Origin: a virus
Lineage: Duplodnaviria > Caudoviricetes
DNA: 64,000 nt
Reading direction: 5' to 3' (one strand)
Virus record (IMG/VR): IMGVR_UViG_3300048898_000066
Coordinates: 5,325 to 69,324 of that record
Positions 1,822 to 39,699 of this stretch are shown in pieces. Under the pieces are notes generated by a model. It was not told the DNA's origin. It worked only from the letters and a program-made list of their open reading frames with translations, and searched no databases. How positions within the stretch are numbered: the stretch's first letter is position 1; each line of letters opens with the position of its first letter. The position numbers and the translations under genes were made by a program.

Positions 1822-1851
1822 TCGAGCATCCGCAAATCAAGGAGAAATAAA

Positions 1852-2451
1852 ATGTTCCAAAAAGTCGTGAATCGCAGCTACACCGAAGGCTTTCCAGGCC
1901 AGATGACCTTTGGCGGTCCATACCGTGCCAAGCCAGGTCGCATCTCGTCCGCCTCCGGCAACACCATCGGTCTGGTATTCGGCGTAAGCGGTGAAGTGCC
2001 CAATGGTGGCTCCACCCAAGCAGTGATGGAACTGCGCGCAGCAGTCGGTGGCACCACCTTCCTCGGTATTCTGGGTCACCCACAACACTACGCTCTGAAC
2101 GGCACAGTATCTGGTGGCCCGCTGGCGCCATCCATTGACCTGCCGCAATGGTCCGAAGGTGAGTTCTTTGATATGGTCACCGGCATGTGCGTGGCCATCT
2201 ACAATGAAACCACTTCGACCAAGGCCGTTGCTTATGGTGACTCGCTGGCATACTGCACCACTGCAACCACTGCTCTGCAGAATCCGCAATCGGTTCCAGT
2301 CGGCGGCATCATCTCCGTCCCTGCCGGTGGATCGGTCCCTGCTGGCTTCCAAGCAATTCCGAATTCGAAAGTGCGCAATCCAATCTCGCTGGCTGCTTCT
2401 GCAGCTGGCGCGCCGGTTGCAGGCCTGACCAACATCCAGCTGACCAACTAA
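1852..2451 (+). CDS. Head decoration/cement protein
   Basis: 199 aa; aaggag SD; FQK.VN...GFPG N-terminus; lies between protease and capsid. Confidence 0.75.
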   Translation: MFQKVVNRSYTEGFPGQMTFGGPYRAKPGRISSASGNTIGLVFGVSGEVPNGGSTQAVMELRAAVGGTTFLGILGHPQHYALNGTVSGGPLAPSIDLPQWSEGEFFDMVTGMCVAIYNETTSTKAVAYGDSLAYCTTATTALQNPQSVPVGGIISVPAGGSVPAGFQAIPNSKVRNPISLAASAAGAPVAGLTNIQLTN

Positions 2452-2487
2452 TCGTTGGCAGGCTATCAGTAATTTAAGGAGAAAAAT

Positions 2488-3639
2488 ATGCAACCGAGCG
2501 TAACCCGTTCCAGCCTCAAAGGCCGAAGCATGAAGCCGTTCGATATGGGCTCTGCAGCCCTGACCGGACAGGCTGTGCAAGCCTTGGCAAATATCGGCCT
2601 GATCTTTGATCATTCCGTTGTTCAAGAGCAAATCCAAGCCCTGGCACGCGCAGGCGCCTTCAATCCAGAGCCGACCGCACGCGGCGCGATGGACTCGGCA
2701 TTCACCGCACCGGTCACCACTGCGTCCATTCCGACCCCGCTGCAATTCCTGCAGCAATGGCTGCCAGGCTTCGTCAAAGTGATGACCGCCGCGCGCAAGA
2801 TTGACGACATTCTGGGCGTGAAAACCGTCGGCTCCTGGCGCGATCAAGAGATCGTCCAGGGTATCGTTGAACCTGCTGGCGTTGCTGGCGAATACGGTGA
2901 CTTCACCGACATCCCGTTCACCAACTGGAACACCAACTTTGAACGTCGCACCATCATCCGTGGTGAAGCCGGCATCCAAGTTGGTATGCTGGAAGAGGAG
3001 CGTGCGTCGGCGATGCGTCTGAACAGCGCTGAAACCAAGCGCCAGCAGGCTGCTGTGTCCCTGGAAATCCTGCGCAATGCAGTTGGCTTCTATGGCTACG
3101 ATGCAGGCAACAACCGCACCTTTGGCCTGCTGAATGACCCCAACCTGCTGCCTTACATCACCTCGGTGACTGGCACCGGCTGGATCGGTGCATCGTTCCA
3201 GGCCATCTGCAACGACATCCGAATTGCTGTTCGCACCCTGCGTCTGCAGTCTCAAGACCAAGTCGACCCTGAAAAGGTTGATCTGACTCTGGTGCTGCCA
3301 ACCGGCAAGGTTGATCTGCTGACCACCGTGACCGACTTCGGCATCTCGGTGCGCGACTGGCTGACCCAGACCTATCCGAAAATCCGCGTGGTATCCGCAC
3401 CGGAATTCGGCGGCGCAAACGGTACTGACGATGTGTTCTATCTGTTCGCAGATGACATTGACTCGGCAATCGACGGCTCCAGCGACGGCGGCGAAGTCTT
3501 CGCCCAGCTGGTGCAGACCAAGTTCCAAACTGTAGGTGTGGAGAAGCGTGCCAAGACCTACATCGAGGACTACACCAACGGCACCGCTGGTGTACTGTGC
3601 AAACGCCCTTGGGCAGTTGTGCGCGTGACCGGTATCTAA
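2488..3639 (+). CDS. Major capsid protein (DUF2184-like, HK97 fold)
   Basis: 383 aa; strong SD aaggag; GEYGD, GLLNDPN and C-terminal GV..KRP.AV motifs; biased codon usage. Confidence 0.9.
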
Positions 3640-3656
3640 TCGGTTGCAAGTAGTAC

Positions 3657-3687
3657 CGGCCCCGGAATCTCTCCGGGGCCGTATAAC
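3657..3687 (+). promoter_or_regulatory. 10-bp GC hairpin after capsid gene followed by TATAAC
   Basis: cggccccgga-atctc-tccggggccg then tataac; no U-tract. Confidence 0.5.
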
Positions 3688-3741
3688 CGATCTGCTTTGG
3701 CTGTAGGGGCCACGGTGGACGTAATAACTAGGACTACAATT

Positions 3742-4194
3742 ATGAGCAAATATGTATACATCGTCTCCGCGATGACCGATTCCATCTCGTACTGCTTTTA
3801 CGCAGACCCTGTGAACGAGAAGGACACCCCAGCACTGCGCGAGAAAATCACCATTCGCGGCGGTCGCGGCCTACCGAGCCAACGAAGCGGATTCGGCGAG
3901 CAGTCGCACGACGTTCAAGGTATGCCGCTGTGGACTGCTGACGGAATTGTCACTCGCATCACAGAAGAGCAATATTCCCGACTGAAAGAACACCCATTGG
4001 CAAAGCGACACCTCGCAGCCAAGCGCCTGACCATGGTCAGCGAGGATGTCACAGGCAATCACAAGAAAGTGCGCCAGATTACGCGCGATATGGAAGGTCC
4101 AGACGGCCACTCGCTGCTGAACAAGTCCACTGTGAAACAGCGCATCAACAAAAACATCAAGGTTGCAGAAGACAACGACGCTAACCGCGTCTAA
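3742..4194 (+). CDS. Hypothetical head-module protein
   Basis: agga SD before ATG 3742; position between capsid and connector genes. Confidence 0.7.
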   Translation: MSKYVYIVSAMTDSISYCFYADPVNEKDTPALREKITIRGGRGLPSQRSGFGEQSHDVQGMPLWTADGIVTRITEEQYSRLKEHPLAKRHLAAKRLTMVSEDVTGNHKKVRQITRDMEGPDGHSLLNKSTVKQRINKNIKVAEDNDANRV

Positions 4195-24158: not shown

Positions 24159-24716
24159 TTAGCCCTCCAGACCGAGTGCAGCTACTGCACCGGCGTAAGC
24201 AGGATCGTCGGATTTGATGAATGCACCGTTGTACATTACGCCTAGTCGGTCTTTGATCTCGTCGTAAGCGTATTCAAGGCATGCTGCCATTTCCAGAGCA
24301 TACAGGTCGCAGATATTCTGGAGGAAGTGCAAAAACGCAGACAGATTCGTCTGGAAAGTGCCAACTTGGCCTTTCAGCACGTTGTCGGCCATGCAACCGA
24401 GAACTGATGCGCAGCACAGGGAGTTCTTTTGTGCCGAGCCGGATGGCGTTTCACCCATCATGTTTGCCACTTGCAGGCACAGGCCGAAGTCCACGCCCAG
24501 TTGCGCGGATACGATGATCTGTGTCACTAGCGTATCGCCAATGCCATCAACGATAAGGTCACGGTCTTCGTTGATGATGGCCTGCGCCAGTTCACCAAAT
24601 TCGGAGACGGTCTTCAGGGTTTGCGATTTCGGGTCGGAACCCTTGATCAGGTTGCGGGCTTCAGCCCACGCAACGACCATATTTGCCGTTCGCAGCAAGC
24701 GCTCTTTATCAATCAT
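24159..24716 (-). CDS. MazG-like nucleotide pyrophosphohydrolase
   Basis: K..SE.GEL, DGIGD and AY.EIKDR.G motifs. Confidence 0.8.
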   Translation of the reverse strand: MIDKERLLRTANMVVAWAEARNLIKGSDPKSQTLKTVSEFGELAQAIINEDRDLIVDGIGDTLVTQIIVSAQLGVDFGLCLQVANMMGETPSGSAQKNSLCCASVLGCMADNVLKGQVGTFQTNLSAFLHFLQNICDLYALEMAACLEYAYDEIKDRLGVMYNGAFIKSDDPAYAGAVAALGLEG

Positions 24717-25303: not shown

Positions 25304-26185
25304 TTAGAAGCCGTCAGCTTCTTTAGGTTTGTCGCTTGCACCAGGACCGTCCGAGGTCGGAGCCTTGGAGTAGTCGGCCTTGACCGCGCCGCTGGACACG
25401 CTGGTGTAGAATGCTTTGGCTTCTTCGAACAGGTCTTTTTCGGTGACCAGGCCGTTCAGAGTGAAGACGATGCCAGACCAGCTGCCGGAGTCGTTCTGCT
25501 GACCGATGGTGGTGACGCGCACCTTGTTCAGGAACATCGGCGGCGTGCGCTTGCCGTTTGGCGTGTCAATTTTCTTCTGTTGCAAGGCGGTCATCAGCAT
25601 CTTCGACGGCTTGATTTGGGACGATGCCAGGGACAGAATGGCGCTGCCGGTTTCGCCGGATGCCGGGTCGATGGTGATGACGTAGTGTGCGCGCGTATCG
25701 GCGAAGTAGTCGGTTTTCTTGTCATCAACTGCCGAGCCGTCTTCCGGGGTCTTGTAGTAGACGCCATCCTTGACGGTAATCTGGCCGTGTTCGATCATCT
25801 GTTCAACCACTTCCGGCGTGAACTCGCCCTTGAAGCCGCCGCCTGCATCGCGCTGGCCCCACAGAATGAAGGAGCGCTTGTAGTAGCACGGCACAATGTC
25901 AAAGCCTTCTTTGCCGTCGAACAGGCGATTGGTGACGGTATTCAGGATCATCCCGGCCTTTGCGCCCTTGATGTACTGCGCGTTGTCTTCGTCCACTTTC
26001 GGGGACATCTTCTGCAGGATTTGCAGGAATGGAATGGCGAAGGAGTCTTTGTCTGCGCCTTCGAAGCCTGCGCCGCCGAAGTCTTCTGCCGACAGGAACG
26101 ACAGCGCTTGATCATTGACTACAGCCACGGAGGAGGTTGCTGCAACTGCTACTTCGGTCGATGCTGCTTTTTCGGTTTTTGCCAT
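25304..26185 (-). CDS. Putative ssDNA-binding/annealing protein
   Basis: 293 aa; IPFL.ILQ..SP motif; acidic C-terminus ending F; replication module; highly expressed codon bias. Confidence 0.55.
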   Translation of the reverse strand: MAKTEKAASTEVAVAATSSVAVVNDQALSFLSAEDFGGAGFEGADKDSFAIPFLQILQKMSPKVDEDNAQYIKGAKAGMILNTVTNRLFDGKEGFDIVPCYYKRSFILWGQRDAGGGFKGEFTPEVVEQMIEHGQITVKDGVYYKTPEDGSAVDDKKTDYFADTRAHYVITIDPASGETGSAILSLASSQIKPSKMLMTALQQKKIDTPNGKRTPPMFLNKVRVTTIGQQNDSGSWSGIVFTLNGLVTEKDLFEEAKAFYTSVSSGAVKADYSKAPTSDGPGASDKPKEADGF

Positions 26186-26216
26186 GGTATGTTTCCTTTA
26201 TGGTTTGTGTTGCTGA

Positions 26217-26885
26217 TTAAAAGTTGTAGCTTACTTGCGGCTTGAACTGAATTGCTTCTGGTGCTGCCGACGAAGTGATTTTACTAGACTTCTTCGCAGC
26301 CCCTTTCGGAGCAGTGATCTTTGTTTTCTTGAACTCATACACGCCGAAGATGGACACAGGAATTGCATCGCCTGCTTCCATGCGCTCTTTCACGAACGAT
26401 TTCAGCGTTGCGGCATGCACGCCTTCGTCAATGGAGGCTTCAAAACCAGCCTCACGAAGTTTACTCAGAGCCTCTTCCGCCTTGGACAGTTCGCCGCGAC
26501 CGAATTCTGCCAGCACCTTGGTTTTGATGATGCCGTCAAAGTTGTGTTCACGGAGCCAGCGGTGCGCTGAAGGTTTGTTCTCTGCGGTGATGGAGGCCTT
26601 GAGGTCGTTCTTGACTTCCAATTTGTAGCCGTCTTCCATGGTGAACGATTCCATGGCAAGTTCAGCCATGATGTCTGGAATGGTGCGCATGGAGATTCGG
26701 TCAAACGCAGCTTGTACTTCGGCCAGTGCAACCGTCTTCTCGTTCACCTCTGCTTCCAACTCTTGCATTTTGCGCGCCTGATCGCGGAGACGTTCCAATG
26801 TGGCAACCGGCGCTACTTGCGGCGGAAGATCGTCAAAGGCGGTGAGCGGGTCAAATCCGCGCTCAGAATTGTCGTGCTCACTCAT
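26217..26885 (-). CDS. Conserved replication-module protein
   Basis: 222 aa coiled coil plus WLRE....IIK and VH..TLK.FVKE motifs. Confidence 0.65.
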   Translation of the reverse strand: MSEHDNSERGFDPLTAFDDLPPQVAPVATLERLRDQARKMQELEAEVNEKTVALAEVQAAFDRISMRTIPDIMAELAMESFTMEDGYKLEVKNDLKASITAENKPSAHRWLREHNFDGIIKTKVLAEFGRGELSKAEEALSKLREAGFEASIDEGVHAATLKSFVKERMEAGDAIPVSIFGVYEFKKTKITAPKGAAKKSSKITSSAAPEAIQFKPQVSYNF

Positions 26886-27214
26886 GGATTAACCTCGATG
26901 CTGTTGTACATTTTCAGAACCCGATCCCACTTCAGGAAGCTGACTTTTTGTTGACGGCGGAAGATGATGCCAGCGCACATGGCGATGACAGTAGGGTCAC
27001 CAACAGCCAGAAAATGATCGTCCGGACCAAAGTCGGACAGGGCCTTGCGAATCTTCGGTGCCAGGAACGCCAGGAACTGAACGTTATCGGACTTCTCCAG
27101 GATCGGTGTCAGTTGGCCGAAGTGTGCTGCCGCGCTGAAGTCAAAGACAGGAGTCATTCGACCTGTCGCTTGATCATAGCGCTCTACTAATTGAGGGATG
27201 AAAACTCTTCCCAT
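26882..27214 (-). CDS. Conserved hypothetical protein
   Basis: 110 aa; D..L..GDP and LKWDR....Y motifs; gaaaggag SD. Confidence 0.7.
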   Translation of the reverse strand: MGRVFIPQLVERYDQATGRMTPVFDFSAAAHFGQLTPILEKSDNVQFLAFLAPKIRKALSDFGPDDHFLAVGDPTVIAMCAGIIFRRQQKVSFLKWDRVLKMYNSIEVNP

Positions 27215-29293: not shown

Positions 29294-29484
29294 GCAACCA
29301 CCACTTGTTTGCGGATATGGACGGCCTGAACGGCATATGCCACCGACACCGTAATCACGATGCACCCTACTGCCAATGCACAGATCCACAAAGGATGGCG
29401 ACTGCGACTAATCAGGATATTCCCGACTGTCAAAACGATGGCTACAATACAGACCATCAACAAGGCATAAATTGCGATTTGCAT
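29284..29484 (-). CDS. Small two-TM membrane protein (holin candidate)
   Basis: 66 aa; two hydrophobic helices and a basic C-terminus; coupled to the Pol stop. Confidence 0.5.
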   Translation of the reverse strand: MQIAIYALLMVCIVAIVLTVGNILISRSRHPLWICALAVGCIVITVSVAYAVQAVHIRKQVVVAWR

Positions 29485-32399
29485 TACTCTTCCTCCTCTT
29501 CAGGTTGATCTTCTTTTGGTTCAATAGGCGTATCCAATCGCTTTATGTTTTTGACAATGAACATGTCAATGTCCTTAAGCTTCCAGCCTTTGATAAGGAA
29601 CCACGACCCCATCGGCGCTGTCTCTGCGATAGGCTTGCCCAAGGTTGGGAACTTGTCCGGACGAACACGGAATCGCATGGGAGAATCTGTCGAATCGTCC
29701 ACCATCATCAGGTCAACGAACTGGGTGAGGCCTTTCTTAATCTCGCCACCTCGCTTCTTGATCCTGATGGCCTCATTCTCGTCGGCCAAAACCTTTTTGA
29801 CCAACTTGCCGATTACAAGGCCGTCATCCTTGTCCTTGACCTCCTTCATCCCGACAATTCGATTGCCGGACGTTACACCAGCCAGTCGTGGGTCGTCATA
29901 GAAATGGCCCCACTTTGTGTGAGCTTCCGCCAAGTCGGAGTACTTCACTTCGGCATTCGCCAACGACGCTGCGGCCTTATCAAACTTCGCACGCAACTTC
30001 GGATCAGCATCACGATTGGCGCGCATCTCGATGAATTTCGCAGCTTTCACCGGGCCATAACCCTTTGCATTCATGATGCCACCGATCAGACGGCCATCGG
30101 CCACTTTCCAGTTCATATCGCTGAACTCAGGGTCAATCGGCGTATAGCCTACCCCTTCTTTTGCCATCTCGCGCAAGATTGCAATGACCTGTTCATCATC
30201 TTTCGCAGCACGAAGACAGGCCGCAGCAAAGTGGAGAGGATGGTAACGCTTCAGCCACAACGTCCAGTAAGTCACGACGGCATAGCTGACGGAGTGCGAC
30301 TTGTTGAAGCCCCACGAACCAAACGTGACCATTTCATTCCAAATCTTCTTGGCTTGATCTTCTGGCACGCCTTGTGACGTTGCACCTGCCACGAAGTCTG
30401 CGCCCATTTGGTTGAAGTACTCTTCGCCCTTACGACCCGACATGGCCTTACGAACTGCAGAAGTCTTCACCCAGTCAAACAGGCCAATTTCCTTGACCAC
30501 GGACATGATCTGTTCCTGATACAGGAAAACGCCGTAAGTGTTCCGTAGGTACTTCTCCAGCTGGGGCACGTCGTAGCTAACTGGCTCCGACCCCTTGGCG
30601 CGTGCGATGTACTTTTGGGCCATACCGGAAGCTAGTGGGCCAGGTCGCGCCAGCGCCGTTAGGTTGTCGATTTTACTGAACGAGTCAACGTGCACGGAGC
30701 GAGTAACAGATCGCACGGCATCACCTTCAAACTGGAAGATGCCAGATACTTTGTCTTGATTGAGGATGTCTAGCACAGACTGATCATCAAGCGCCAGAGA
30801 ATACAACTGGTCTGCAGTCACAACGCCGGAGTCCTCGATGATGCCAAGAGTGCGAAGACCAAGAGCGTCAATCTTGAGCAGATTCAGATATTCGCTGTCC
30901 GGCTTGTCAATTTGCGCCACGCCTTCTTCATTCACTGTGCAGTAGTCGGTCACTTCGTCATTACAGACGAGAATTCCCGCCGCGTGAACACCTGTGTGAC
31001 TCGGGTGAATCTCCAGGTCTGACATGCACGCTGCGGCATCCGGATATTTCTCACGAAAATCCTGTCCAGGTGCTGTCTGCTCAAACGTATCATTCAAGCC
31101 TTTGCCGTAACGCGCGTCACCGGACGAATATTCAATCAAAGCATTCTTGACACTGGAAGTTTCACCGAACGAAATGTTAAACTTCTTGCCGACTTGTGCC
31201 ATGACGGAGTTGGCCTTGAGCGTGTTGATATTCCCCAGCTTTGCGACGTTATCTGCGCCGTACTTCTCTTTCAGGTAGTCAAATACCATATAGCGCTTGG
31301 TATCTGCAAAGTCGATGTCGATGTCCGGCAAGTCGGCTCGGCTGATGTCGATGAATCGTTGGAACAGGAGGTCGTGTGGCAGAGGGTCCACCTCAGTTAT
31401 TTCAAGGAGGTAACATACCAGAGAACCAGCCGCAGAGCCTCGCGCAGGGCCCACAAGCATGTGGCGCTTAGCAAAGCGAACAAGGTCAGCCACAACAAGG
31501 AAATAACTATCAAACGACTTGTTTTGAATCTGGCGTACCTCTTCCAAGAGCCGTTCTTCGTATTCATTTGTCCACTCCTTGATATGGCCGCGTGCAAGTC
31601 GGCTGGCCTGCCCTTCGCGGCAGAGGGCTACCATGTCTCCTTCCAGGTGAATGATCGGAGCCTTCTTGAGCGAGATGCCCTGCAGCTGGCGCGCGAGAGC
31701 GTGGGTGTTATCCACGGCCTGATTGAACATTTTACGCGGCATCACCAGTCGCAGCTGTGACCAGATTTCTGCTTCAGAGGCAAGATGGCGAACGCCGACA
31801 GAGTCACGGACTTCCCAAGCATAAGCGAAGTCTTCATGCTTCTTGTCTGGAACGTCGTTGTAGTTGGTGATGACCATCGGCAGACCGTGTTTGATGGCAA
31901 ACTGGTAGTTCTCGTAAGCCAGCGTCAGCGAGGATGGATTGATGTCCACCAACAGATCGTCCATCTCTTGTCGCGATACATATTCCTCCATTCGGTGCGA
32001 TGCGCCGCCGACAAATTTCAGGCACCCTTCCAGAGACAGAAACTCCTCGGCAGTCAGGCCGCGATTACGTACAGATTTTGACGTGGCATGGTACATCTTG
32101 ACGGTATCCAGCCCGATAATCCATGCTTTTGGTTTGAACTTGGCATCTGGATGTGCCATCGATCCGGAATCGCCAAAAGTGTCATCGCTGAATAATATCG
32201 GAATCTCCATTCCAAACCCGGCTTGAATCTCTGCCTTCTTTGCGGCCTGTTCGAAACGCACGTGACCCCAAGTGGCAGAGTCAACGATGCACGCCGTAGT
32301 AGCGCCGATCTCTTTCAGGCGATCAAACACCTCAGGCATACGGCCATATCCTTCTCGGAACGAATACCCTGTGCGCACCCGCAGTTGTGGTAAAGTCAT
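29484..32399 (-). CDS. dnaE: DNA polymerase III alpha subunit (family C)
   Basis: 971 aa; GPARGSAAGSLV, RADLPDIDIDF, HAAG, KIDALGL, YQEQIM and WGFNKSH motifs; degenerate PHP N-terminus. Confidence 0.95.
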   Translation of the reverse strand: MTLPQLRVRTGYSFREGYGRMPEVFDRLKEIGATTACIVDSATWGHVRFEQAAKKAEIQAGFGMEIPILFSDDTFGDSGSMAHPDAKFKPKAWIIGLDTVKMYHATSKSVRNRGLTAEEFLSLEGCLKFVGGASHRMEEYVSRQEMDDLLVDINPSSLTLAYENYQFAIKHGLPMVITNYNDVPDKKHEDFAYAWEVRDSVGVRHLASEAEIWSQLRLVMPRKMFNQAVDNTHALARQLQGISLKKAPIIHLEGDMVALCREGQASRLARGHIKEWTNEYEERLLEEVRQIQNKSFDSYFLVVADLVRFAKRHMLVGPARGSAAGSLVCYLLEITEVDPLPHDLLFQRFIDISRADLPDIDIDFADTKRYMVFDYLKEKYGADNVAKLGNINTLKANSVMAQVGKKFNISFGETSSVKNALIEYSSGDARYGKGLNDTFEQTAPGQDFREKYPDAAACMSDLEIHPSHTGVHAAGILVCNDEVTDYCTVNEEGVAQIDKPDSEYLNLLKIDALGLRTLGIIEDSGVVTADQLYSLALDDQSVLDILNQDKVSGIFQFEGDAVRSVTRSVHVDSFSKIDNLTALARPGPLASGMAQKYIARAKGSEPVSYDVPQLEKYLRNTYGVFLYQEQIMSVVKEIGLFDWVKTSAVRKAMSGRKGEEYFNQMGADFVAGATSQGVPEDQAKKIWNEMVTFGSWGFNKSHSVSYAVVTYWTLWLKRYHPLHFAAACLRAAKDDEQVIAILREMAKEGVGYTPIDPEFSDMNWKVADGRLIGGIMNAKGYGPVKAAKFIEMRANRDADPKLRAKFDKAAASLANAEVKYSDLAEAHTKWGHFYDDPRLAGVTSGNRIVGMKEVKDKDDGLVIGKLVKKVLADENEAIRIKKRGGEIKKGLTQFVDLMMVDDSTDSPMRFRVRPDKFPTLGKPIAETAPMGSWFLIKGWKLKDIDMFIVKNIKRLDTPIEPKEDQPEEEEE

Positions 32400-32620
32400 T
32401 GCAACTCCATTTCATAAAGCTCCCAAGAACGTTCGTCAGCGTCAGAAGCAATGATCACTTTGCCATTCCCAGCTGCAAGACACTCGGCAGTTTCGACTTC
32501 CATGTTGGTTGACTCAATAAGAGTCTTGTAGCCAGGTTTTTTGGCAAAGACGCAAGCTACTTCACGGTCTATCCAATCACCCTCATCATCGCAACTTTGA
32601 AGAACCCATACAGTCTTCAT
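32396..32620 (-). CDS. Hypothetical protein
   Basis: 74 aa acidic; ggag SD; overlaps both neighbours. Confidence 0.6.
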   Translation of the reverse strand: MKTVWVLQSCDDEGDWIDREVACVFAKKPGYKTLIESTNMEVETAECLAAGNGKVIIASDADERSWELYEMELQ

Positions 32621-33168
32621 ACACACTCCTTTCCAATATTGTAAACACCCATCACCTTGGCCATTTCATGCATTAGTCGAACGTCGTCCAATGCCCTGTG
32701 TTTCTGGATGTAAGGCTGGCCGGTTATCCGCTCGTACAGTTCAATCAGTCGCATGCGGCGACCGAAGCGGTGAAATGTTTGCTCTACTGTACAGATTTGA
32801 ATCTCTGGAAAGTTGACGTCTTTCAGCGTCAGGCCGATACGCTCCAGATCCCACTGCAACATCGACTTATCGAATGACAGGCTGTGGGCGATACATGCTT
32901 GAGCGCGACCGAAGAAGTCTGCCAGTTGCGGCACGAATTCTTCAAATGGAGGTTTCGTCTCCAGATCGGCGTTTGTCAGACCTGTGATCTCTGTGATGAT
33001 TGGCTCGATTGCGACGCCTGGATTGCAGATGAATTCAAGCGTGTGAAGAACACCATCTCCGTCTGTGATCATGCCGCCGAATTCGATGATGCGAGGTTGT
33101 TTATTGCGCGAAACTAGGCGATGCGCAGGAAGCCCGGTAGTTTCGGTGTCGTATGGTGCAAATAACAT
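32617..33168 (-). CDS. DEDDh 3'-5' exonuclease (epsilon-like)
   Basis: DTETTG, AHSLSFD and HRALDD motifs. Confidence 0.9.
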   Translation of the reverse strand: MLFAPYDTETTGLPAHRLVSRNKQPRIIEFGGMITDGDGVLHTLEFICNPGVAIEPIITEITGLTNADLETKPPFEEFVPQLADFFGRAQACIAHSLSFDKSMLQWDLERIGLTLKDVNFPEIQICTVEQTFHRFGRRMRLIELYERITGQPYIQKHRALDDVRLMHEMAKVMGVYNIGKECV

Positions 33169-33588: not shown

Positions 33589-34167
33589 TTACTTGCGCCC
33601 ACGAGTGGACTTGCGCTTAACACGGTCTGCCTTGATCTGTGCAGGGCGCGCTGGCGAGGCGTCAAACGGGGTGCCGTCCATGTTCAAGCGCACAATAAAC
33701 TTCAGGTCAACGCCGATAATGTCCACGGTATCAAAGATGACGTAGTTGTAACGGCGCTCGTCCTTGATGAAAGGATTTGTGTGCGCTTGCGTGATGACTT
33801 CTTGAGCAACAGAGATGCCTTCGCGGTTGAAGTATGCGCGGAAGTCGGCCAGTTCTTCAGCAGAGCAGTGCATGCCCAAGTGGGACACAGTATTCTCCGG
33901 ACGACGACGCAGCCAGTTGTTGCCATCGACGTATTTCAACACTTCCAGTTCCAGCGACTTGCCTGCTGGGTCGTTTCCATTCCCGGATTGATAGTTGAAC
34001 TGGAGGAGTGCGCTGTTGCAACCTTCGACGCCGAATACTTTGCCGCCAGCAACAACATTGTCCTTGAACCAGTCCGTCAGGCCCAGGTCGGACAGCAGCT
34101 TGATTGCGCGGTCGGTGTTCTTTGGTGCGATTGCGATTTGCTCGATGCGGAATTGCAGTTTATTCAT
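33589..34167 (-). CDS. VOC/glyoxalase-superfamily protein (epimerase-like)
   Basis: IEQIAIA, LELEVL, SHLGMH and DLKFI beta-strand pattern of paired VOC modules. Confidence 0.7.
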   Translation of the reverse strand: MNKLQFRIEQIAIAPKNTDRAIKLLSDLGLTDWFKDNVVAGGKVFGVEGCNSALLQFNYQSGNGNDPAGKSLELEVLKYVDGNNWLRRRPENTVSHLGMHCSAEELADFRAYFNREGISVAQEVITQAHTNPFIKDERRYNYVIFDTVDIIGVDLKFIVRLNMDGTPFDASPARPAQIKADRVKRKSTRGRK

Positions 34168-34183: not shown

Positions 34184-34876
34184 TTATTTACCGAACGGGA
34201 TGTCGGTGCCAGACATGTATTTTACCGGGCCGTCGCCGTCTGGGCCGATCAGATGGCCGATGAACTCTGCCAGCGCGTATGGGTCGGATTCCAGGCCGTG
34301 CATCAGGGCCTTCTTCTGGTATTCGGCGGCGTACTCCGGAGTCCAGCCGCGAACTTTGCAGACATTCGCTTCGATTTGCTTGGACATCTGCGTGCCGGCC
34401 AGCTTGTTCGGAGAGATGGACAGGACGGTGATGCCGTGTTTGTTGGTCAGTTCGTGTGCCATCTGCTTGGTTGCCATCAGCGCAGCAGCCTTGCTCATGT
34501 TGTAGGCCAGGCTGGAAGTCATCGGAATCGTTGCGGCGTTGCTGACGATGTTGATGACTACACCGCGATTTCGCTTCAAAGCTGGCAAGCAGGCCTGAGT
34601 CATATAGACAGGGCCGAAAGCGTTCACCAGCATGACCTTGGACAGGGATTCGTGCGTAACTTCTTCAAACCACTCGTTGTGATTGATACCGGCACAGTTG
34701 ATCAGGACGTCAACGTCAACGTCTTTCAGCCATTCTGCCGGTTGCGATACATCGTTTCCGTTTTCGATATCGTATCCGAACACATTGTGACCAAGACCTT
34801 CGTTCAGAATGTCCGCGATCATTTCGCCAAGGCCGTTGCTGGAGCCGGTCACGATGATGTTAAGTTGCTTTCCCAT
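34184..34876 (-). CDS. Short-chain dehydrogenase/reductase (SDR)
   Basis: TGSSNGLG, LINCAG, VN..G, NIVS and Y.MSK catalytic motif. Confidence 0.9.
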   Translation of the reverse strand: MGKQLNIIVTGSSNGLGEMIADILNEGLGHNVFGYDIENGNDVSQPAEWLKDVDVDVLINCAGINHNEWFEEVTHESLSKVMLVNAFGPVYMTQACLPALKRNRGVVINIVSNAATIPMTSSLAYNMSKAAALMATKQMAHELTNKHGITVLSISPNKLAGTQMSKQIEANVCKVRGWTPEYAAEYQKKALMHGLESDPYALAEFIGHLIGPDGDGPVKYMSGTDIPFGK

Positions 34877-34908: not shown

Positions 34909-35886
34909 TTATACCGGCTCTTTATGGATTTGGATGTTGTGCTTTTCTGTCAATCGCTCAACGAATCCGCCGTAAATGGAGCCGTCGTGAATCGAGTCCT
35001 TGTGTTTCAATCCAGAGTTGACGAATCGTGTCAATTTGACGATGTTCAGTTCGAAGAGGTGCCACATCTCAAAGTCTGCCGCAGTCTTAAGCGTTACGCC
35101 GTTGGGGAACATCACCGCCAGCATATCTGCAACCTTAGATGCGTTATAACCGTAGTCTGCGGAACGGCTCCGGAGCGTAGCCGACATCTGATCGAAAATC
35201 CCGGCGATTTCCGCCAGTTCCGGCGAGGCAGAGGCCGTCGCTGCAGGCATTGAATCCTCCTTACTGTGTCCGTTTAGAGCCGGTTTAACAGGTCTTCCGA
35301 TGTCAGTCAACATCAGGTCGCCTTCGCGGAAAATTCGCGGTGATGCGCCGGAATGGTAGCAATAAACGCCAGATTTCACGTTGGAGCGATAGCAAGTCAA
35401 CCCTTTTGCTGCATAAGCACTCAGAACATCAATTCTGTCATCATATGCCGCGACCACTTCAACGTCATTCCCTTCACCAATCAACTTTTCAATGTAAGAA
35501 GACAGCAGATCAATCTTCAGATCCGGAGAAGTCTGAAAGTCGCCATTAGGTCGCATCCATGTCTCTGCGCGAATTGGCTCTTTCAAGTTCGCTACGCCTT
35601 CTTTCCCCAGCCACACCTCCGTCTGCTGGCGGTATTTAACCGGCCTGGCAGTCAGGAACAACACACGAAAGTCGCACCCGCGATAACGCGTAATAAGACC
35701 TTGCAACGCCAAAAAGCCCGATGGAATAGGAGGGTCGCTTGGCGCTAGTTCATTGTAGGCATCATACGCCTCGTGCGGCGTGTTGCCGTCCTTCTCTGGT
35801 AGCAGGTGCAAACGATGCCTATCATCCGACAGACAGCCATCAATATCGAATACGGCAAGTTTGATTAGGTTCTTTTTCTGTTCCAC
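34909..35886 (-). CDS. HAD phosphatase fused to all-alpha nucleotide-pyrophosphatase-like domain
   Basis: FDIDG, LTAR, MRP..D and YDDR motifs; C-terminal R..DYG / KLTR / DS.HD..IY; GTG start after the thyX stop. Confidence 0.75.
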   Translation of the reverse strand: MEQKKNLIKLAVFDIDGCLSDDRHRLHLLPEKDGNTPHEAYDAYNELAPSDPPIPSGFLALQGLITRYRGCDFRVLFLTARPVKYRQQTEVWLGKEGVANLKEPIRAETWMRPNGDFQTSPDLKIDLLSSYIEKLIGEGNDVEVVAAYDDRIDVLSAYAAKGLTCYRSNVKSGVYCYHSGASPRIFREGDLMLTDIGRPVKPALNGHSKEDSMPAATASASPELAEIAGIFDQMSATLRSRSADYGYNASKVADMLAVMFPNGVTLKTAADFEMWHLFELNIVKLTRFVNSGLKHKDSIHDGSIYGGFVERLTEKHNIQIHKEPV

Positions 35887-35887
35887 G

Positions 35888-36721
35888 TTACATACTCTTT
35901 CCGCCAGAGGCAACAGGGTTGGCTTGCGCAATCTCTTCACGCGACCAGAACTTCACGCGAACTTCCTTTTTGAGTTGCGCCAAGTCCATGCGCGGATCGT
36001 AGTGAGGGCATTGGAAGCCGATATTGGCAGCCGTCGAATTAAACATGGCATCGGCCATATTCTTGAACACCTTGCCATCAGAATCCTTCGGAGCGCCGCC
36101 CCAACGAGGAAACGCGCAGGTGCCTGTCGCAACGCAATGAACCTCCAGCAACGGCGCGGCCCATGGATAGATATCCAGAACCAGCTTGCGCATGGCACGG
36201 AACACTTCCTGGTATTCGCCCTGAGTACGTGCGCACAGGCGAAGCTTCGCCATATCAGACAGCGTGCGCAGGTTGAACTTCGCGTCGATGACGGTGGCCA
36301 TATTCGAAGGGATGACTGCCCGCGCATCCTGGAGTTGAGCGCCTGCTGCGATAAGCTTCTTGTAGTGGGCGTTTGCGTCCGCCACGCCGTCCTGGAACAG
36401 ATTGAACAGTTCACCGCCTTCTTCAAAGTTCTCTGGCGTTATTACTTCGCCGACCTCAAGAGCGCGGCTGGTTTCCTGCTGGTACGCACCGGTGCGCGTG
36501 CGAACGAATTGATGGGTGAAATTTTTGCTGACGCCTTCGATGTGAAAGATGAAGTCCACAAACTCAAACGGGGACTTGATCGTATCCAGCATATACTGGA
36601 AGTGATCATACAACTCTTCATTTGACATCTCTTCCGGCGACTTGCCGCGCATGCGCGTTGTCTTGGTTCCTACAAGCAACTCCAGCGCGTTCTGGGTGTA
36701 TGACTTAAGTACAACTTTCAT
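35888..36721 (-). CDS. thyX: ThyX-family flavoenzyme with non-canonical motifs
   Basis: SPFEF, HQFVRTR.....ETSR, AR.V.P and N.R......LR....Q.E motifs. Confidence 0.85.
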   Translation of the reverse strand: MKVVLKSYTQNALELLVGTKTTRMRGKSPEEMSNEELYDHFQYMLDTIKSPFEFVDFIFHIEGVSKNFTHQFVRTRTGAYQQETSRALEVGEVITPENFEEGGELFNLFQDGVADANAHYKKLIAAGAQLQDARAVIPSNMATVIDAKFNLRTLSDMAKLRLCARTQGEYQEVFRAMRKLVLDIYPWAAPLLEVHCVATGTCAFPRWGGAPKDSDGKVFKNMADAMFNSTAANIGFQCPHYDPRMDLAQLKKEVRVKFWSREEIAQANPVASGGKSM

Positions 36722-36972
36722 TTAACGTCCCTTTCGTGTCTATAGAACCATTCCGGTGAATCGTAGTTCACGCCTCTGCGAAAATGCTCTTCAAGTCGCA
36801 TGACGACACAGCCGATTTCGGTCGGGTTCAGCTTTGTCGATACACCCAGTATTTCGCACTCTCGTACTTCAATCTGGTGGATCCTTGATGGGTTGATGCC
36901 GTACTCATCGGCCAGTTCAATGACCGTCTTTCCGTGAGCCCGCTCAAGAAGTATCTTGGTGTTTCTTCTCAT
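36718..36972 (-). CDS. Small HTH DNA-binding protein (sigma70 region-4-like)
   Basis: GKTVIELADEYGINPSRIHQI helix-turn-helix pattern; own TATAAT and SD. Confidence 0.6.
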   Translation of the reverse strand: MRRNTKILLERAHGKTVIELADEYGINPSRIHQIEVRECEILGVSTKLNPTEIGCVVMRLEEHFRRGVNYDSPEWFYRHERDVK

Positions 36973-37035: not shown

Positions 37036-37578
37036 TCAGAAGTTGCCAGGTGCCACTTGGAAGCAGTTCACGCCGTTCCTTCTCCACATCGCGACAACCT
37101 TATCACGGTCGTCGAACACCGCAACCAACCTGGCACGATCTTCCGGCGGCAGAAGGCCCAGCCAACGCATCTTCAATACGTCGTCATGTGTGAAGTCGTC
37201 GGCCTTGCGCATCTGCAGTTCGTAGTCAACGCCGATGTGATTATCCAGCCAGTCCAATGTCTTGCCTGCGACCTCGTCAGAACGGCCTGACCAGATACGA
37301 ATTTCGCAGCCTTGTGAACGTAACATCGTCAAAGTGCGAATGACAGGCCAGTTAGGTTCATCCTTGTCGCAAGCGGCATAGAAGGCTTTCCAGTCCGGTT
37401 TGAATTTCTGATCAAGACCGGTATAGCCACAGTCAAGACAGGCCGGGTCAGCGCTGCCGACATGTCCTTCACCGCCGCAAGTAGAGCAAGGCGGGCGCTC
37501 AACGAAGTGACGACGGTGGTCAATCAATGCAAGCGTGCCATCCAGATCAAAGATGTAAAGTGGACTCTTATTGGCCAT
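37036..37578 (-). CDS. HAD phosphatase (PNK 3'-phosphatase-like)
   Basis: FDLDGT, WSGR, MR...D...D..LK and FDDR..VV.MW...G..C.QV motifs; CxxC..CxxC insert. Confidence 0.85.
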   Translation of the reverse strand: MANKSPLYIFDLDGTLALIDHRRHFVERPPCSTCGGEGHVGSADPACLDCGYTGLDQKFKPDWKAFYAACDKDEPNWPVIRTLTMLRSQGCEIRIWSGRSDEVAGKTLDWLDNHIGVDYELQMRKADDFTHDDVLKMRWLGLLPPEDRARLVAVFDDRDKVVAMWRRNGVNCFQVAPGNF

Positions 37579-37775: not shown

Positions 37776-38780
37776 TTAAAATGGGATGTCGTCATCAAAC
37801 TTCGTCGTTTGTGTTGCGTGGTAGTGCAGAGCGCCGTAGTCACCGGCCTTGATCAGTTTGTCGATGACCTTGATGTCGTCTACTACGTCATCAAGCAGAA
37901 TGTTTTTCCAAGTGGCGAAACGGCCCAGGGAATATACGCCATAGTCACGCGTCAACGAATAGATCGCGGCACGGCGCAGGTTCTCTGGCATATCCACGAT
38001 CTTGCCGTACTTCTGGTCAACCGTCTCAATGAATGTCAGAGATCGCTTGCTTATGCCAAACGATTCGCACACCACGAAGTCCAGTTCACTTTCGATCAGA
38101 CTCAACATGTACTTGTCGGCTTCGCTGTAGCCGTCGATGGACTCGACAATCATCACATCGCCGGTGATAGATGCACGGAATACGCGCAGGTCAGGCTCTG
38201 GGTAGTAGATGGTCTGGTACACGTTAGTGCCTGGCGGCAACTGGTATCTGTCAACACGAATTGCCGCGCGGTCGGATTTGGCGCTGAGTTGCGCTTCCAG
38301 GTCCAGACTCGTGGCCGTAGCGATCACGTGCAGCGGCGCTGTGTTGATGTGCACTACATCGTCTTTGTATTGAATTTTTGGGATGTAATTGATCGGCGAG
38401 TTGTATGCAATTCGCGCACGGTGGCGATCTACCAACTGCGCGTGAAAGTCGTCCGGGGCGACGTAGCGGGTGACGGGCTCCAAATTCCAGATGCTGCGTC
38501 CACGGAGTCCGTTGGATACTTTCTGGCTGTACTGGTTTGCCATTCGGATATCGCAGGATGTGTGCAGGCGCTTGTCAGAGTGCGTCCAGATGCCCTTGTG
38601 CACCTTAACGTCTTTGAATGGGATGCCGGTGAGTTCTGACACGTTTCTGGTGCGGAAGCGGAGGAGTGCCTTGTGCTGGCTGACCTCTGAACCTGCCTCG
38701 TAAATGAATGCATCTTTGAAATGGCACGCCGCGATAAGGCCAGCAAGTCCTGCGCCGATGATGATTTGTGTTTTGCTCAT
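37776..38780 (-). CDS. FAD-dependent oxidoreductase (Glf/UDP-galactopyranose mutase-like)
   Basis: IIGAGLAG Rossmann motif; C-terminal YSLGRFATW...LDD. Confidence 0.75.
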   Translation of the reverse strand: MSKTQIIIGAGLAGLIAACHFKDAFIYEAGSEVSQHKALLRFRTRNVSELTGIPFKDVKVHKGIWTHSDKRLHTSCDIRMANQYSQKVSNGLRGRSIWNLEPVTRYVAPDDFHAQLVDRHRARIAYNSPINYIPKIQYKDDVVHINTAPLHVIATATSLDLEAQLSAKSDRAAIRVDRYQLPPGTNVYQTIYYPEPDLRVFRASITGDVMIVESIDGYSEADKYMLSLIESELDFVVCESFGISKRSLTFIETVDQKYGKIVDMPENLRRAAIYSLTRDYGVYSLGRFATWKNILLDDVVDDIKVIDKLIKAGDYGALHYHATQTTKFDDDIPF

Positions 38781-38907: not shown

Positions 38908-39699
38908 TTAGGCTTCTGCAGCCGGTTCAGGTTGCGGATCGGATTCCACGGTGTGGAATTCCAGGTGACCCATTTCTTCCAGCTTGCTCAGGTAGCTGCG
39001 GATGGACGCGCCATACAGCATGCCTTTGCACTGAGTGCCGATGTAGTCGATTTCGACTTGTTCGCCGACAGGGCAGTTTTCCTTGATCCATGCCAGCACA
39101 CGGCCACGGGTCGAAGTTTCTTGTGGCGAGGACAGGCCATGGCCGTTGTACGAGATGTGGGTGGCCTTGGCACGGCGTGCGCCATCGGTCTTGTTGGCAG
39201 CTTTGCGGTCGGCAATGGCCTTGGCGCGTTCAGCGGCCTGATCCTTGCGGGCTTGCTTCTGAGCTTCGACTTCAGCGGCCTTCTGGGCTTTGGCAGCTTC
39301 CTTGGCAGCTTCACGTTCAGCTTTAGCGGCTTCCTTGGCCTTCGCGCCTTCAGCCTTTTTCAGTTCGGCTTCAGCTTGGCGTTTTTCTGCGCGTTCAGCA
39401 GCAGCCTTTTCTTTTTCGGCCTGGCGCTCAGCAGCCTTTTGCTCGCGCTCGGCTTCCTTCAGCTTATTCTCTTCTTCACGCTTGGCTTCGCGCTCTTTGG
39501 CGGCGGCTTCACGCTTTTCTTGCTTGGCGCGGTTTTCTTCTTCGCGCTTGGCTTCTTTTTCCTTGTTTGCGGCTTCTTTCTTTGCCAGTTTTTCTGCGTC
39601 GGCAGCAGCCTTCTTCTCGGCCTTTACACGAGCGGCTTCGGCCTTGGCTGCAGCTTTTTCTTCGGTGGTCTGGGTGTTCTCTTTGGTGTTCTGATCCAT
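38908..39699 (-). CDS. K/A/E-rich protein with C-terminal winged-helix-like domain
   Basis: 263 aa; about 170 aa low-complexity helix; strong SD aaggag; TTGAAC-16-GATAAT upstream. Confidence 0.75.
   Translation of the reverse strand: MDQNTKENTQTTEEKAAAKAEAARVKAEKKAAADAEKLAKKEAANKEKEAKREEENRAKQEKREAAAKEREAKREEENKLKEAEREQKAAERQAEKEKAAAERAEKRQAEAELKKAEGAKAKEAAKAEREAAKEAAKAQKAAEVEAQKQARKDQAAERAKAIADRKAANKTDGARRAKATHISYNGHGLSSPQETSTRGRVLAWIKENCPVGEQVEIDYIGTQCKGMLYGASIRSYLSKLEEMGHLEFHTVESDPQPEPAAEA

Follow-up and report, generated by a model that had tools for sequence, protein, structure and literature searches.

Does a phage gene that would routinely be annotated as a flavin-dependent thymidylate synthase (ThyX) still make thymidylate when the residues that handle folate have been replaced, or has it been recruited to another reaction? 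We addressed this question for an ORF of an uncultured tailed phage (Caudoviricetes; IMG/VR record IMGVR_UViG_3300048898_000066), using a 64,000-nucleotide window that spans positions 5,325 to 69,324 of that record. A first-pass annotation, made from the sequence alone, had noted that the ORF carries substituted ThyX signature residues, and had proposed that the FAD/dUMP scaffold is retained but the folate pocket remodelled, consistent with transfer of a group other than the methylene of CH2-THF. As detailed below, the substitutions proved to be real. The interpretation is supported in part, since the retained scaffold and the altered folate side both hold, while the transfer of a different group is only made plausible by genomic context and by the measured sugar-like thymidine hypermodification of related Pbunaviruses.

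The ThyX-like gene carries an altered active-site signature

The ORF encodes a 277-residue protein that matches the Pfam Thy1 family (PF02511) at 103.8 bits, well above the cut-off of 24.8, and its AlphaFold2 (AF2) model most closely resembles T. maritima ThyX (TM0449; EC 2.1.1.148) in the PDB (Table 1). To determine which functional residues are retained, we used HMMER alignments to T. maritima ThyX chains. These mapped His53 to Ile48, His59 to Phe54, Arg74 to His70, His79 to Thr75, Ser83 to Ala79, Asn85 to Gln81, Glu86 to Gln82, Ser88 to Thr84 and Tyr91 to Ala87, whereas Glu58 (Glu53 in the phage protein), Gln75 (Gln71), Arg78 (Arg74), Arg80 (Arg76), Arg90 (Arg86), Arg147 (Arg134), Asn163 (Asn150), Arg165 (Arg152), Arg174 (Arg161), Gln180 (Gln167) and Glu182 (Glu169) are kept. 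The motif RHR-x7-S-x-R-Y is replaced by RTRTGAYQQETSRA, in which the defining RHR-x7-S reads RTR-x7-T, and HxxPFEH is replaced by IKSPFEF. The protein scored 74.4 bits against the NCBIfam thyX equivalog TIGR02170, below its cut-off of 87.9 bits, although the close homologues P0002 and P0020 pass it.

The first-pass annotation was correct that the C-terminal motif is intact, but its true spacing is N-x-R-x7-LR-x5-Q-x-E, one residue longer in each gap than had been written and the same as in T. maritima. Two further points of that annotation required correction: the replacement of Ser88 by Thr is conservative, and Arg90, which it had listed with Ser88 and Tyr91 as lining the dUMP/methylene site, is retained. 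It also missed that Asn85 is lost, that a C-terminal extension of about 80 residues adds four invariant cysteines, and that the whole pattern belongs to a clade rather than to this gene alone.

Table 1. Features of the ThyX-like locus, with window coordinates and supporting evidence.
Position (strand)	Feature	Supporting evidence
35888..36721 (-)	ThyX-like flavoenzyme gene, 277 aa	Pfam Thy1 PF02511 E 1.3e-29; TIGR02170 below cut-off; AF2 pLDDT 93.7; Foldseek top hits T. maritima ThyX, TM 0.76-0.78 normalised to the target over 199 alignment columns
36461..36502 (-)	Altered motif RTRTGAYQQETSRA, residues 74-87	Translation and HMMER mapping; invariant in PB1 and Burkholderia phage WTB
36560..36580 (-)	IKSPFEF, residues 48-54	Translation and HMMER mapping; folate-stacking His53 is Ile
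36008..36274 (-)	Intact N-x-R...LR...Q-x-E motif (residues 150-169), then C-terminal extension with C163, C196, C202 and C238	Translation
37776..38780 (-)	UGM-like FAD protein ('FADox'), 334 aa, PB1 gp68 homologue	No Pfam hit; PHROG 4828, unknown function; AF2 pLDDT 89.7
37036..37578 (-)	Stand-alone HAD (PNKP-type) phosphatase, 180 aa	PF25109 HAD_PNKP E 1e-27; present in only some related loci
36718..36972 (-)	84-aa ORF whose TGA overlaps the ThyX-like ATG (ATGA)	Weak Sigma70_r4-like match only, E 0.0029; rarely conserved in related loci
34909..35886 (-)	HAD phosphatase fused to a C-terminal helical domain, PB1 gp59 homologue; likely start GTG 35886, 1 nt after the ThyX-like stop; longest ORF starts at 35940	PHROG 4889 E 8e-47; HAD_PNKP E 1.1e-5, below Pfam's cut-off; downstream of the ThyX-like gene in nearly all loci
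34184..34876 (-)	Short-chain dehydrogenase/reductase (SDR), 230 aa	PF00106 E 1.2e-28; in most related loci, absent from Pbunavirus proper
33589..34167 (-)	VOC/glyoxalase-fold protein, 192 aa	PF13669 E 9.6e-5, below Pfam's cut-off; same distribution as the SDR
29484..33168 (-)	DnaQ-like exonuclease (32617-33168) and Pol III alpha-type polymerase (29484-32399), directly downstream of the cassette	PF00929 E 3.6e-21; PF07733 E 2.7e-64; syntenic with PB1 gp58/gp57

The altered signature is fixed across a clade of viral loci

We next asked whether the substitutions are shared. A nucleotide search of the phage collection with 8 kb around the gene returned nothing, but a protein-level search recovered relatives, and an 18-sequence alignment was then used to collect 80 related viral loci, in PB1-like phages and beyond. 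Thr75 is present in 80/80 of these loci, Ile48 in 79/80 and all four cysteines in 80/80. The altered motif is identical in PB1 and WTB, which are 62-68% identical to the phage protein in a MAFFT alignment, indicating that the new motif is under strong constraint and is not the product of decay. Positions 84 (T/A/S) and 87 (A/V/T) do vary within the clade, so no new catalytic residue has replaced Ser88 or Tyr91 there. In contrast, Gln71, Glu53, Arg74, Arg76, Arg86, Arg134 and Arg161 are invariant or nearly so across the 80 loci and 150 representatives; among the dUMP-binding and activating residues, Arg86, Arg134 and Arg161 are in 80/80 loci and Gln71 in 79/80.

In T. maritima, His53, Tyr91 and Asn85 form one hydrogen-bonded unit that stacks the folate pterin and the reduced flavin (PMC11940539), and the Y91A mutation slows flavin-carbinolamine consumption by more than 100-fold (PMC8316439). 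Further mutant data for His53 and the extended motif are reportedly given by Koehn 2012 (PMC3465422) and Ulmer 2008 (PMC2258874). All three residues of this unit are replaced together across the clade, while canonical-signature relatives keep them. To assess whether such substitutions are common in verified ThyX enzymes, which would have argued against the proposed remodelling, we examined those that could be aligned, T. maritima and T. thermophilus but not the M. tuberculosis, H. pylori or PBCV-1 enzymes, and found the substitutions absent from both, although they are common in a large uncharacterised phage clade.

The four cysteines are more widely distributed than the altered signature, being present in 87/150 representatives, including canonical-signature ones, but in no solved ThyX that we aligned; T. 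maritima has Asp176 at the first position. The canonical-signature 4-Cys relatives (metagenomic, for example P0146 and P0155) share His at the Arg74 position, keep His53, His79, Ser88 and Tyr91, and form a separate clade with 96% support that is the nearest canonical-signature group in the tree. One member lies beside FolD and formate-THF ligase, and no UGM-like partner gene is present in the two loci checked (L084 and L087). Literature searches for a 4-Cys or Fe-S ThyX found nothing relevant, and a Zn or Fe-S centre at these cysteines is conjectural. Inspection of longer homologues for domain fusions revealed only inteins, a GIY-YIG domain and unassigned N-termini, with no fusion to the partner described below.

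A UGM-like flavoprotein gene accompanies the ThyX-like gene

In 75 of the 80 loci, the ThyX-like gene lies downstream of a gene for a flavoprotein resembling UDP-galactopyranose mutase (UGM), and the 5 exceptions have under 1.6 kb of contig upstream. The stop and start codons overlap or abut in 17 loci. In the phage collection, both genes occur in the same numbers of Pseudomonas (292), Escherichia (27), Serratia (9) and Xanthomonas (6) records, whereas Bacillus, Thermus, Streptomyces and Sulfolobus virus records appear in the ThyX tally but not among the listed organisms of the partner tally. The pair sits in a cassette with the HAD/helical fusion and, in most loci, the SDR and VOC genes, just upstream of the phage polymerase. 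When the helical domain is a separate ORF in relatives it gives only weak hits to DUF6378 (E 0.0077) and DUF1599/Nmad1 (E 0.11), and in this phage it gave no Pfam hit.

The best VIA match to the predicted structure of the partner is T. cruzi UDP-galactopyranose mutase (4dsg_A; Z 21.9 over 303 aa), and the top Foldseek hits are also UGMs, although protoporphyrinogen oxidases come next at Z 19.3, with protoporphyrinogen and amine oxidases following closely at Z 17-19. The only PDB sequences touched by the family profile are UGMs, on blocks that include the A. fumigatus Arg327 region and the C-terminal GRF..WR motif; the blocks sought as UGM criteria, the FAD-binding GxGxxG and the substrate-binding Arg in the YRA(T/S) block, align, but at non-significant E-values of about 0.5. 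The partner is also shorter, at about 300-334 aa against 365-510 aa for UGMs.

To determine whether another gene could supply thymidylate or modify thymine, we searched for ThyA (PF00303) and found no match in the complete 69.3-kb genome or in 29 related records, 23 of them at least 90% complete. The ThyX-like gene is the only thymidylate-synthase-like gene in this genome and in 28 of the 29 records; the remaining record (G020, locus L060) has an extra divergent Thy1 paralogue next to the partner gene. A second thymidylate-synthase-like gene would have argued for a new function. No Tet_JBP (PF12851) match was found in the genome at E <= 1, a search that would not exclude a divergent dioxygenase among the ORFs lacking an assignment. 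No 5-hmdU DNA kinase, aGPT-type pyrophosphorylase or glycosyltransferase family came up among the roughly 50 ORFs scanned, which excluded small ORFs and included many without any Pfam match.

Discussion

Virion DNA of the Pbunaviruses F8 and 14-1 contains sugar-like thymidine derivatives of 362 and 390 Da that replace about a quarter of T, and the authors of that work note that Pbunaviruses carry no known modification genes (Yee et al. 2025 preprint, PMC12191111). F8, 14-1 and PB1 carry the same ThyX-like gene (55-56% identity by tblastn, with the motif invariant), the same partner gene and the same HAD/helical gene in the same order, whereas the phage studied here additionally has the SDR, the VOC protein and a second HAD. 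Our literature searches found no gene assignment for this hypermodification and no flavin-dependent dUMP hydroxymethylase, and a paper on T-dioxygenases (PMC13229309) does not mention Pseudomonas phages or Pbunavirus.

Taken together, we favour, with no more than moderate confidence, the hypothesis that this is a lineage-specific member of the ThyX fold that still binds FAD and a (d)UMP-type nucleotide and activates its C5, but no longer handles the one-carbon donor as canonical ThyX does. In this view it would work with the UGM-like flavoprotein and the neighbouring HAD/helical, SDR and VOC enzymes, which are not needed for dTMP synthesis, to make a C5-substituted deoxyuridylate, either 5-hydroxymethyl-dUMP or a sugar-derived alkyl-dUMP. 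This product would be the precursor of a sugar-like hypermodified thymidine in the phage DNA, made instead of, or in addition to, plain dTMP, and the gene is our best candidate for starting that pathway. Our analysis itself establishes the predicted fold, the retained and lost residues and their fixation across the clade, the strict linkage to the partner gene within a conserved cassette, and the absence of a ThyA or Tet_JBP match within the searches described; the modification of Pbunavirus DNA is taken from the literature. The catalytic activity, the product, the role of the partner and the very presence of modified DNA in this uncultured phage are inferred. Several observations sit uneasily with the hypothesis. 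Everything needed for ordinary dUMP methylation except His53, His79 and Tyr91 is present, and the T. maritima mutants at those positions are slowed rather than shown to be dead. The variation at positions 84 and 87 within the clade means that no new catalytic residue has replaced Ser88 or Tyr91 there. In F8 the modification is confined to TG and covers only about 25% of T, which calls for a sequence-specific step on DNA that a nucleotide-pool enzyme cannot supply, and no such enzyme was found; as about 75% of T stays canonical, the phage also needs plain dTTP. Since F8 and 14-1 lack the SDR and VOC genes, any modification in this phage may differ from theirs, and the modification genes could lie elsewhere in the shared core genome.

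The main alternative, which we consider somewhat less likely but entirely possible, is an ordinary dTMP synthase of a divergent phage subfamily, in which the lost His/Tyr residues are compensated elsewhere and the UGM-like flavoprotein is a dedicated helper, for example a reductase for the ThyX flavin (possibly through a metal centre on the four cysteines) or a supplier of the one-carbon unit, while the phosphatase, SDR and VOC genes are unrelated nucleotide-pool or auxiliary genes. The retained dUMP- and FAD-binding arginines, the scarcity of any second thymidylate-synthase-like gene, the plain T of F8 DNA and the two homologues that pass the TIGR02170 cut-off are in keeping with this view, as are the position in the replication module next to the polymerase, where phage nucleotide-supply genes usually lie, and the inteins in some relatives, which conserved replication-linked enzymes often host. 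However, the query falls below the equivalog cut-off, a natural Ala at Tyr91 together with loss of the whole His53/Tyr91/Asn85 unit would cripple the canonical route as judged by T. maritima kinetics, canonical ThyX needs no protein partner, canonical-signature genes lacked one in the loci and tallies above, and the partner's nearest structures are UGMs, which are not redox reductases. It is unlikely that the enzyme instead acts on thymine or uracil already in DNA, or on dTMP in reverse, with oxidised FAD abstracting a hydride from the thymine methyl group to give the exocyclic methylene, an accepted ThyX intermediate, that a sugar hydroxyl would trap while the partner re-oxidises or supplies the cofactor. 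The TG-specific, partial replacement in F8 points to chemistry on the polymer, no thymine dioxygenase was found in the search above, and Tyr91 of the active-site loop and Arg74 on the 5'-phosphate side are altered; but His at the Arg74 position also occurs in the canonical-signature relatives and is not diagnostic, the ThyX active site lies between subunits of a tetramer and is not known to accept polymers, and no DNA-binding domain is present in the 277 residues. Least likely is a catalytically dead fold kept as a nucleotide- or flavin-binding subunit or regulator: although the RHR-x7-S motif is missing and the equivalog score is low, the conservation of the substrate- and cofactor-binding arginines and the constraint on the altered motif itself are typical of an active site under selection.

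A more speculative and, on present evidence, unlikely possibility is that the ThyX-like enzyme and its partner use flavin-N5 iminium chemistry, which both parent families share, to attach a sugar carbon to C5 of dUMP in place of the folate methylene, so that the sugar's aldehyde carbon would become the 'methyl' carbon of a C-C-linked polyhydroxyalkyl- or C-glycosyl-deoxyuridine. By our own arithmetic, dU + pentose + 2H - H2O gives C14H22N2O9 (362 Da) and dU + hexose - H2O gives C15H22N2O10 (390 Da), equal to the two nucleoside masses reported for F8 and 14-1, but an O-linked reading (5-hmdU plus a tetritol or a pentose) gives the same formulae, so mass alone cannot decide. The HAD phosphatase would then remove the phosphate from a sugar-phosphate donor, and the SDR and VOC enzymes would tailor the chain.

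There is precedent for recruiting a ThyX-fold enzyme from dTMP synthesis into the tailoring of a modified pyrimidine nucleotide in PolB, the UMP/dUMP C5-methylase of polyoxin biosynthesis in Streptomyces (PMC5954106). PolB, however, still methylates, belongs to a cellular antibiotic gene cluster, has no flavoprotein partner that we know of, and matched the canonical-signature relative P0146 (58.6 bits) but not this protein at E 0.01. The proposed role, making a C5-CH2-X handle on dUMP before replication for later tailoring, is that of the ThyA-family dUMP hydroxymethyltransferases that start known thymidine hypermodification pathways in phages M6, ViI, SP10 and PhiW-14 (PMC8989533; Lee et al. 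2018, 2021), which have an unrelated fold and mechanism, with a Cys nucleophile and no flavin.

PB1-like phages are among those most used in therapy against Pseudomonas aeruginosa, and their hypermodified thymidine decides whether END nucleases restrict them, yet no biosynthetic gene has been named. The gene pair described here is conserved across that lineage and well beyond it, in E. coli Wifcevirus, in phages of Xanthomonas, Burkholderia, Serratia, Rhizobium and Vibrio, and in hundreds of uncultured viral contigs, and gives a short list of candidate genes; hundreds of GenBank records call the ThyX-like gene 'thymidylate synthase' without evidence. If our reading holds, this would be the first ThyX-fold enzyme in DNA hypermodification and a flavin-dependent alternative to the ThyA-type hydroxymethylases. 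If it fails, the clade is still a natural experiment showing that ThyX can work without residues now treated as catalytic.

The altered ThyX motifs belong to a conserved phage clade

The 64-kb window belongs to a 69,324-bp IMG/VR virus record that is judged 100% complete. The product of the ThyX-like gene matched Pfam Thy1 (PF02511, E 1.3e-29) and PHROG 85, annotated as 'thymidylate synthase', but fell below the curated cut-off of the NCBI thyX equivalog model TIGR02170 (74.4 against 87.9 bits). An AlphaFold2 model built on 106 homologues was confident (pLDDT 93.7, pTM 0.90), and its best PDB matches were all T. maritima ThyX structures (TM 0.76-0.78 normalised to the target, 199 alignment columns). 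The last 80 or so residues have no counterpart in the solved enzymes. The coordinates of this gene and of the other features described here are collected in the table.

Coordinates of the ThyX-like gene, its neighbours and other features (window positions unless a locus or the genome is named)
Feature	Coordinates	Strand	Product length
ThyX-like gene	35888-36721	-	277 aa
Segment encoding C163, C196, C202 and C238 of the ThyX-like protein	36008-36235	-	
UGM-like flavoprotein gene (PB1 gp68)	37776-38780		334 aa
HAD phosphatase with helical domain (PB1 gp59)	34909-35886		
SDR	34184-34876		
VOC-fold protein	33589-34167		
Extra HAD	37036-37578		
PB1 gp69 homologue	38908-39699	-	263 aa
Weak MazG match	24159-24716	-	185 aa
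Three consecutive genes matching Pam3 gp34, gp33 and gp32 families	25304-27214	-	
Second Thy1 paralogue of a relative (record G020)	L060:4483-5091	+	202 aa
Portal protein with InPase domain (genome bases 1441-3930, outside the window)	L088:1441-3930	+	
SAM-methyltransferase gene in an Ile48 variant locus	L085/L086: 1769-2263 / 3341-3835	+	164 aa

The first-pass annotation had described substituted signature and upstream motifs together with an intact C-terminal motif, and translation of the gene confirmed that these peptides are at the stated places. To map the substitutions, we used HMMER alignments to T. maritima ThyX chains. These showed the changes His53->Ile48, His59->Phe54, Arg74->His70, His79->Thr75, Ser83->Ala79, Asn85->Gln81, Glu86->Gln82, Ser88->Thr84 and Tyr91->Ala87, while Glu58, Gln75, Arg78, Arg80, Arg90, Arg147, Asn163, Arg165, Arg174, Gln180 and Glu182 are kept. 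The residues that hold FAD and dUMP and polarise the uracil are therefore present, whereas those on the other face of the flavin are gone. In T. maritima, His53 stacks the folate pterin and the reduced flavin and is held by hydrogen bonds from Tyr91 and Asn85 (PMC11940539), and the Y91A mutation slows consumption of the flavin carbinolamine more than 100-fold (PMC8316439). All three members of this unit are replaced in the phage protein.

The phage is a relative of Pseudomonas phage PB1, with which it shares the gene order Dda-like helicase, gp69, gp68, small ORFs, ThyX-like gp61, gp59, exonuclease and Pol III alpha. Using tblastn, we found the protein in 426 phage records, including 292 Pseudomonas phages (about 55% identity) and phages of Burkholderia (64%), Xanthomonas and Xylella (62%), Serratia, and E. 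coli Wifcevirus (about 50%). The motif VRTRTGAYQQETSRALE is identical in PB1 and Burkholderia phage WTB. Among 80 related IMG/VR loci at 40-69% identity, Ile48 is present in 79, and Thr75, Arg74, Arg86, Arg134 and Arg161 are present in all 80, while position 84 is T/A/S (34/27/19) and position 87 is A/V/T (40/27/12). An exhaustive search of 1.84 billion representatives returned 2,050 hits, and of the best 150 of these, 90 have Ile at position 48 and 72 have Thr at position 75. Intein-like insertions of about 180-380 aa interrupt the conserved F-T-H-Q block just before the altered ThyX motif in two metagenomic homologues, P0039 and P0045, and P0058 has an N-terminal GIY-YIG domain. One complete 49-kb relative (record G020, locus L060) has a second, divergent Thy1 paralogue that keeps His53, Ser88 and Tyr91 but reads R-I-A in place of RHR; it sits right after the UGM-like gene described below, and the 4-Cys variant lies 5 kb downstream.

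Four cysteines are shared with canonical-signature relatives

C163, which replaces T. maritima Asp176 two residues after the catalytic Arg174, together with C196, C202 and C238, is invariant in all 80 loci, and the four cysteines are present in 87 of the 150 representatives. They define a large ThyX subfamily that also includes representatives with the canonical signature (His53, His79, Ser88, Tyr91), one of which (P0155, at locus L087) lies directly upstream of FolD and formate-THF ligase on a cellular contig. In a tree of 112 full-length representatives, the canonical-His group is one clade (96% support), while the aliphatic-48 proteins include a clade of 81 rows (99%) that holds the query, and a subclade that has lost the cysteines is nested inside it (99%). 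No solved ThyX that we aligned has the cysteines. The simplest reading is that they are an older subfamily trait of real folate-linked ThyX enzymes, perhaps a Zn or Fe-S site that may lie close to the catalytic Arg174 equivalent, and that the loss of the His/Tyr unit came later, in phages.

The ThyX-like gene is linked to a gene for a UGM-like flavoprotein

The product of the gene corresponding to PB1 gp68 has no Pfam match. Using tblastn, we found this gene upstream of the ThyX-like gene in 75 of the 80 loci, and the five exceptions have under 1.6 kb of contig upstream. In 17 loci its stop overlaps or abuts the ThyX-like start by 1-20 nt, and in nine more the gap is 60 nt or less. In the phage collection it occurs in 362 records, with the same counts as the ThyX-like gene for Pseudomonas (292), Escherichia (27), Serratia (9) and Xanthomonas (6), whereas Bacillus, Thermus, Streptomyces and Sulfolobus virus records appear in the ThyX tally but not among the organisms listed for the partner. 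It also accompanies the no-Cys variant (locus L083) and an Ile48 variant that keeps RHR (locus L086), but is absent from the canonical-signature loci L084 and L087.

Its predicted structure (pLDDT 89.7) best matched T. cruzi UDP-galactopyranose mutase (UGM; Z 21.9, rmsd 3.3, 303 residues), with protoporphyrinogen oxidases following at Z 19.3. Foldseek also ranked UGMs first, while the ESM Atlas placed the protein with PPOX/amine-oxidase-type flavoproteins. A family profile touched only UGM sequences in the PDB, at non-significant E-values (about 0.5), although the hits fell on two recognisable blocks, one containing A. fumigatus Arg327 and the other being the C-terminal GRF..WR motif. As membership of the UGM family is unproven, we refer to this protein only as UGM-like herein.

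The gene pair lies in a conserved cassette

Downstream of the ThyX-like gene, almost every locus has a HAD phosphatase with a helical domain, fused or as separate genes, followed by the exonuclease and Pol III alpha. Most loci outside Pbunavirus proper also have an SDR and a VOC-fold protein in between, as is the case here. This phage additionally has an extra HAD and an 84-aa ORF whose TGA overlaps the ThyX-like ATG. The helical domain gave only weak hints of DUF6378 and DUF1599 ('nucleotide modification associated domain 1') in relatives. In an Ile48 variant locus that keeps RHR (L085/L086), a SAM-methyltransferase gene is inserted between the HAD and the helical-domain genes of the cassette.

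Between the Dda-like helicase and the UGM-like gene, PB1-like loci conserve the gp69 homologue, which has a long Lys/Ala/Glu-rich N-terminal half, a compact C-terminal domain and no Pfam hit, and which may bind DNA. The same leftward gene block encodes a protein with a weak MazG match (E 0.0013, below the cut-off), a homologue of which is found about 10 kb from the ThyX-like gene in PB1-type loci. Three consecutive genes match the Pam3 gp34, gp33 and gp32 families (E 5.7e-84, 5.4e-40 and 8.4e-30), and the same trio precedes the UGM-like and ThyX-like pair in the distant locus L083. Elsewhere in the genome, the portal protein (Phage_portal_3, E 9.5e-91) carries a C-terminal inorganic pyrophosphatase (InPase, PF18823) domain (E 6.3e-47).

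A possible role in thymidine hypermodification

A 2025 preprint (PMC12191111) reports that virion DNA of Pbunavirus F8 and 14-1 contains thymidine derivatives of 362 and 390 Da, which replace about a quarter of T, in TG context, and its authors point out that the family carries no known modification genes. Our literature search found no later paper assigning genes. In every known pathway, the carbon attached to C5 of a hypermodified thymidine is installed by a thymidylate-synthase-family enzyme on dUMP (PMC8989533). We found no ThyA in this genome or in 29 related records, no Tet_JBP hit in this genome, and no kinase, pyrophosphorylase or glycosyltransferase family among the ORFs scanned. The ThyX-like gene is the only candidate for this step that came up in these searches; it has lost precisely the folate-side residues and has gained a flavoprotein partner resembling sugar-nucleotide enzymes.

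Our best reading, held with no more than moderate confidence, is that the enzyme alkylates C5 of dUMP through its flavin but releases something other than dTMP, either 5-hydroxymethyl-dUMP or a sugar-derived adduct. The predicted fold, the kept and replaced residues, their conservation across the clade and the linkage to the UGM-like gene rest on our analysis, and the modified DNA of F8 and 14-1 on the preprint, whereas catalysis, its product, the role of the partner and any physical association of the pair are inferred. The first-pass annotation had proposed that the FAD/dUMP scaffold is retained and that the folate pocket is remodelled, consistent with transfer of a group other than the CH2-THF methylene; this interpretation is partly supported, since the first two points agree with the residue mapping while the third remains a hypothesis. 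Against our reading, the TG-specific, 25% replacement needs a sequence-reading enzyme on DNA, which we did not find, 75% of T stays plain, and positions 84 and 87 are variable.

The main rival, which is possible but which we consider less likely, is a true dTMP synthase whose partner supplies electrons or the one-carbon unit. A bolder and unlikely version of our own reading draws on the fact that ThyX and UGM both work through an N5-iminium of reduced flavin, and on our calculation that dU + pentose + 2H - H2O = 362 Da and dU + hexose - H2O = 390 Da; the O-linked 5-hmdU readings give the same formulae. A DNA-level or reverse reaction appears improbable, and a dead fold more so.

In its predicted scaffold and the substrate-binding residues it retains, the protein resembles a ThyX, but it lacks the RHR-x7-S motif and the His53 unit and scores below the equivalog cut-off. 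We therefore regard it as a variant that departs from ThyX in these three features, and not as a ThyX. PolB of polyoxin biosynthesis provides the precedent for a ThyX paralogue with a changed role.
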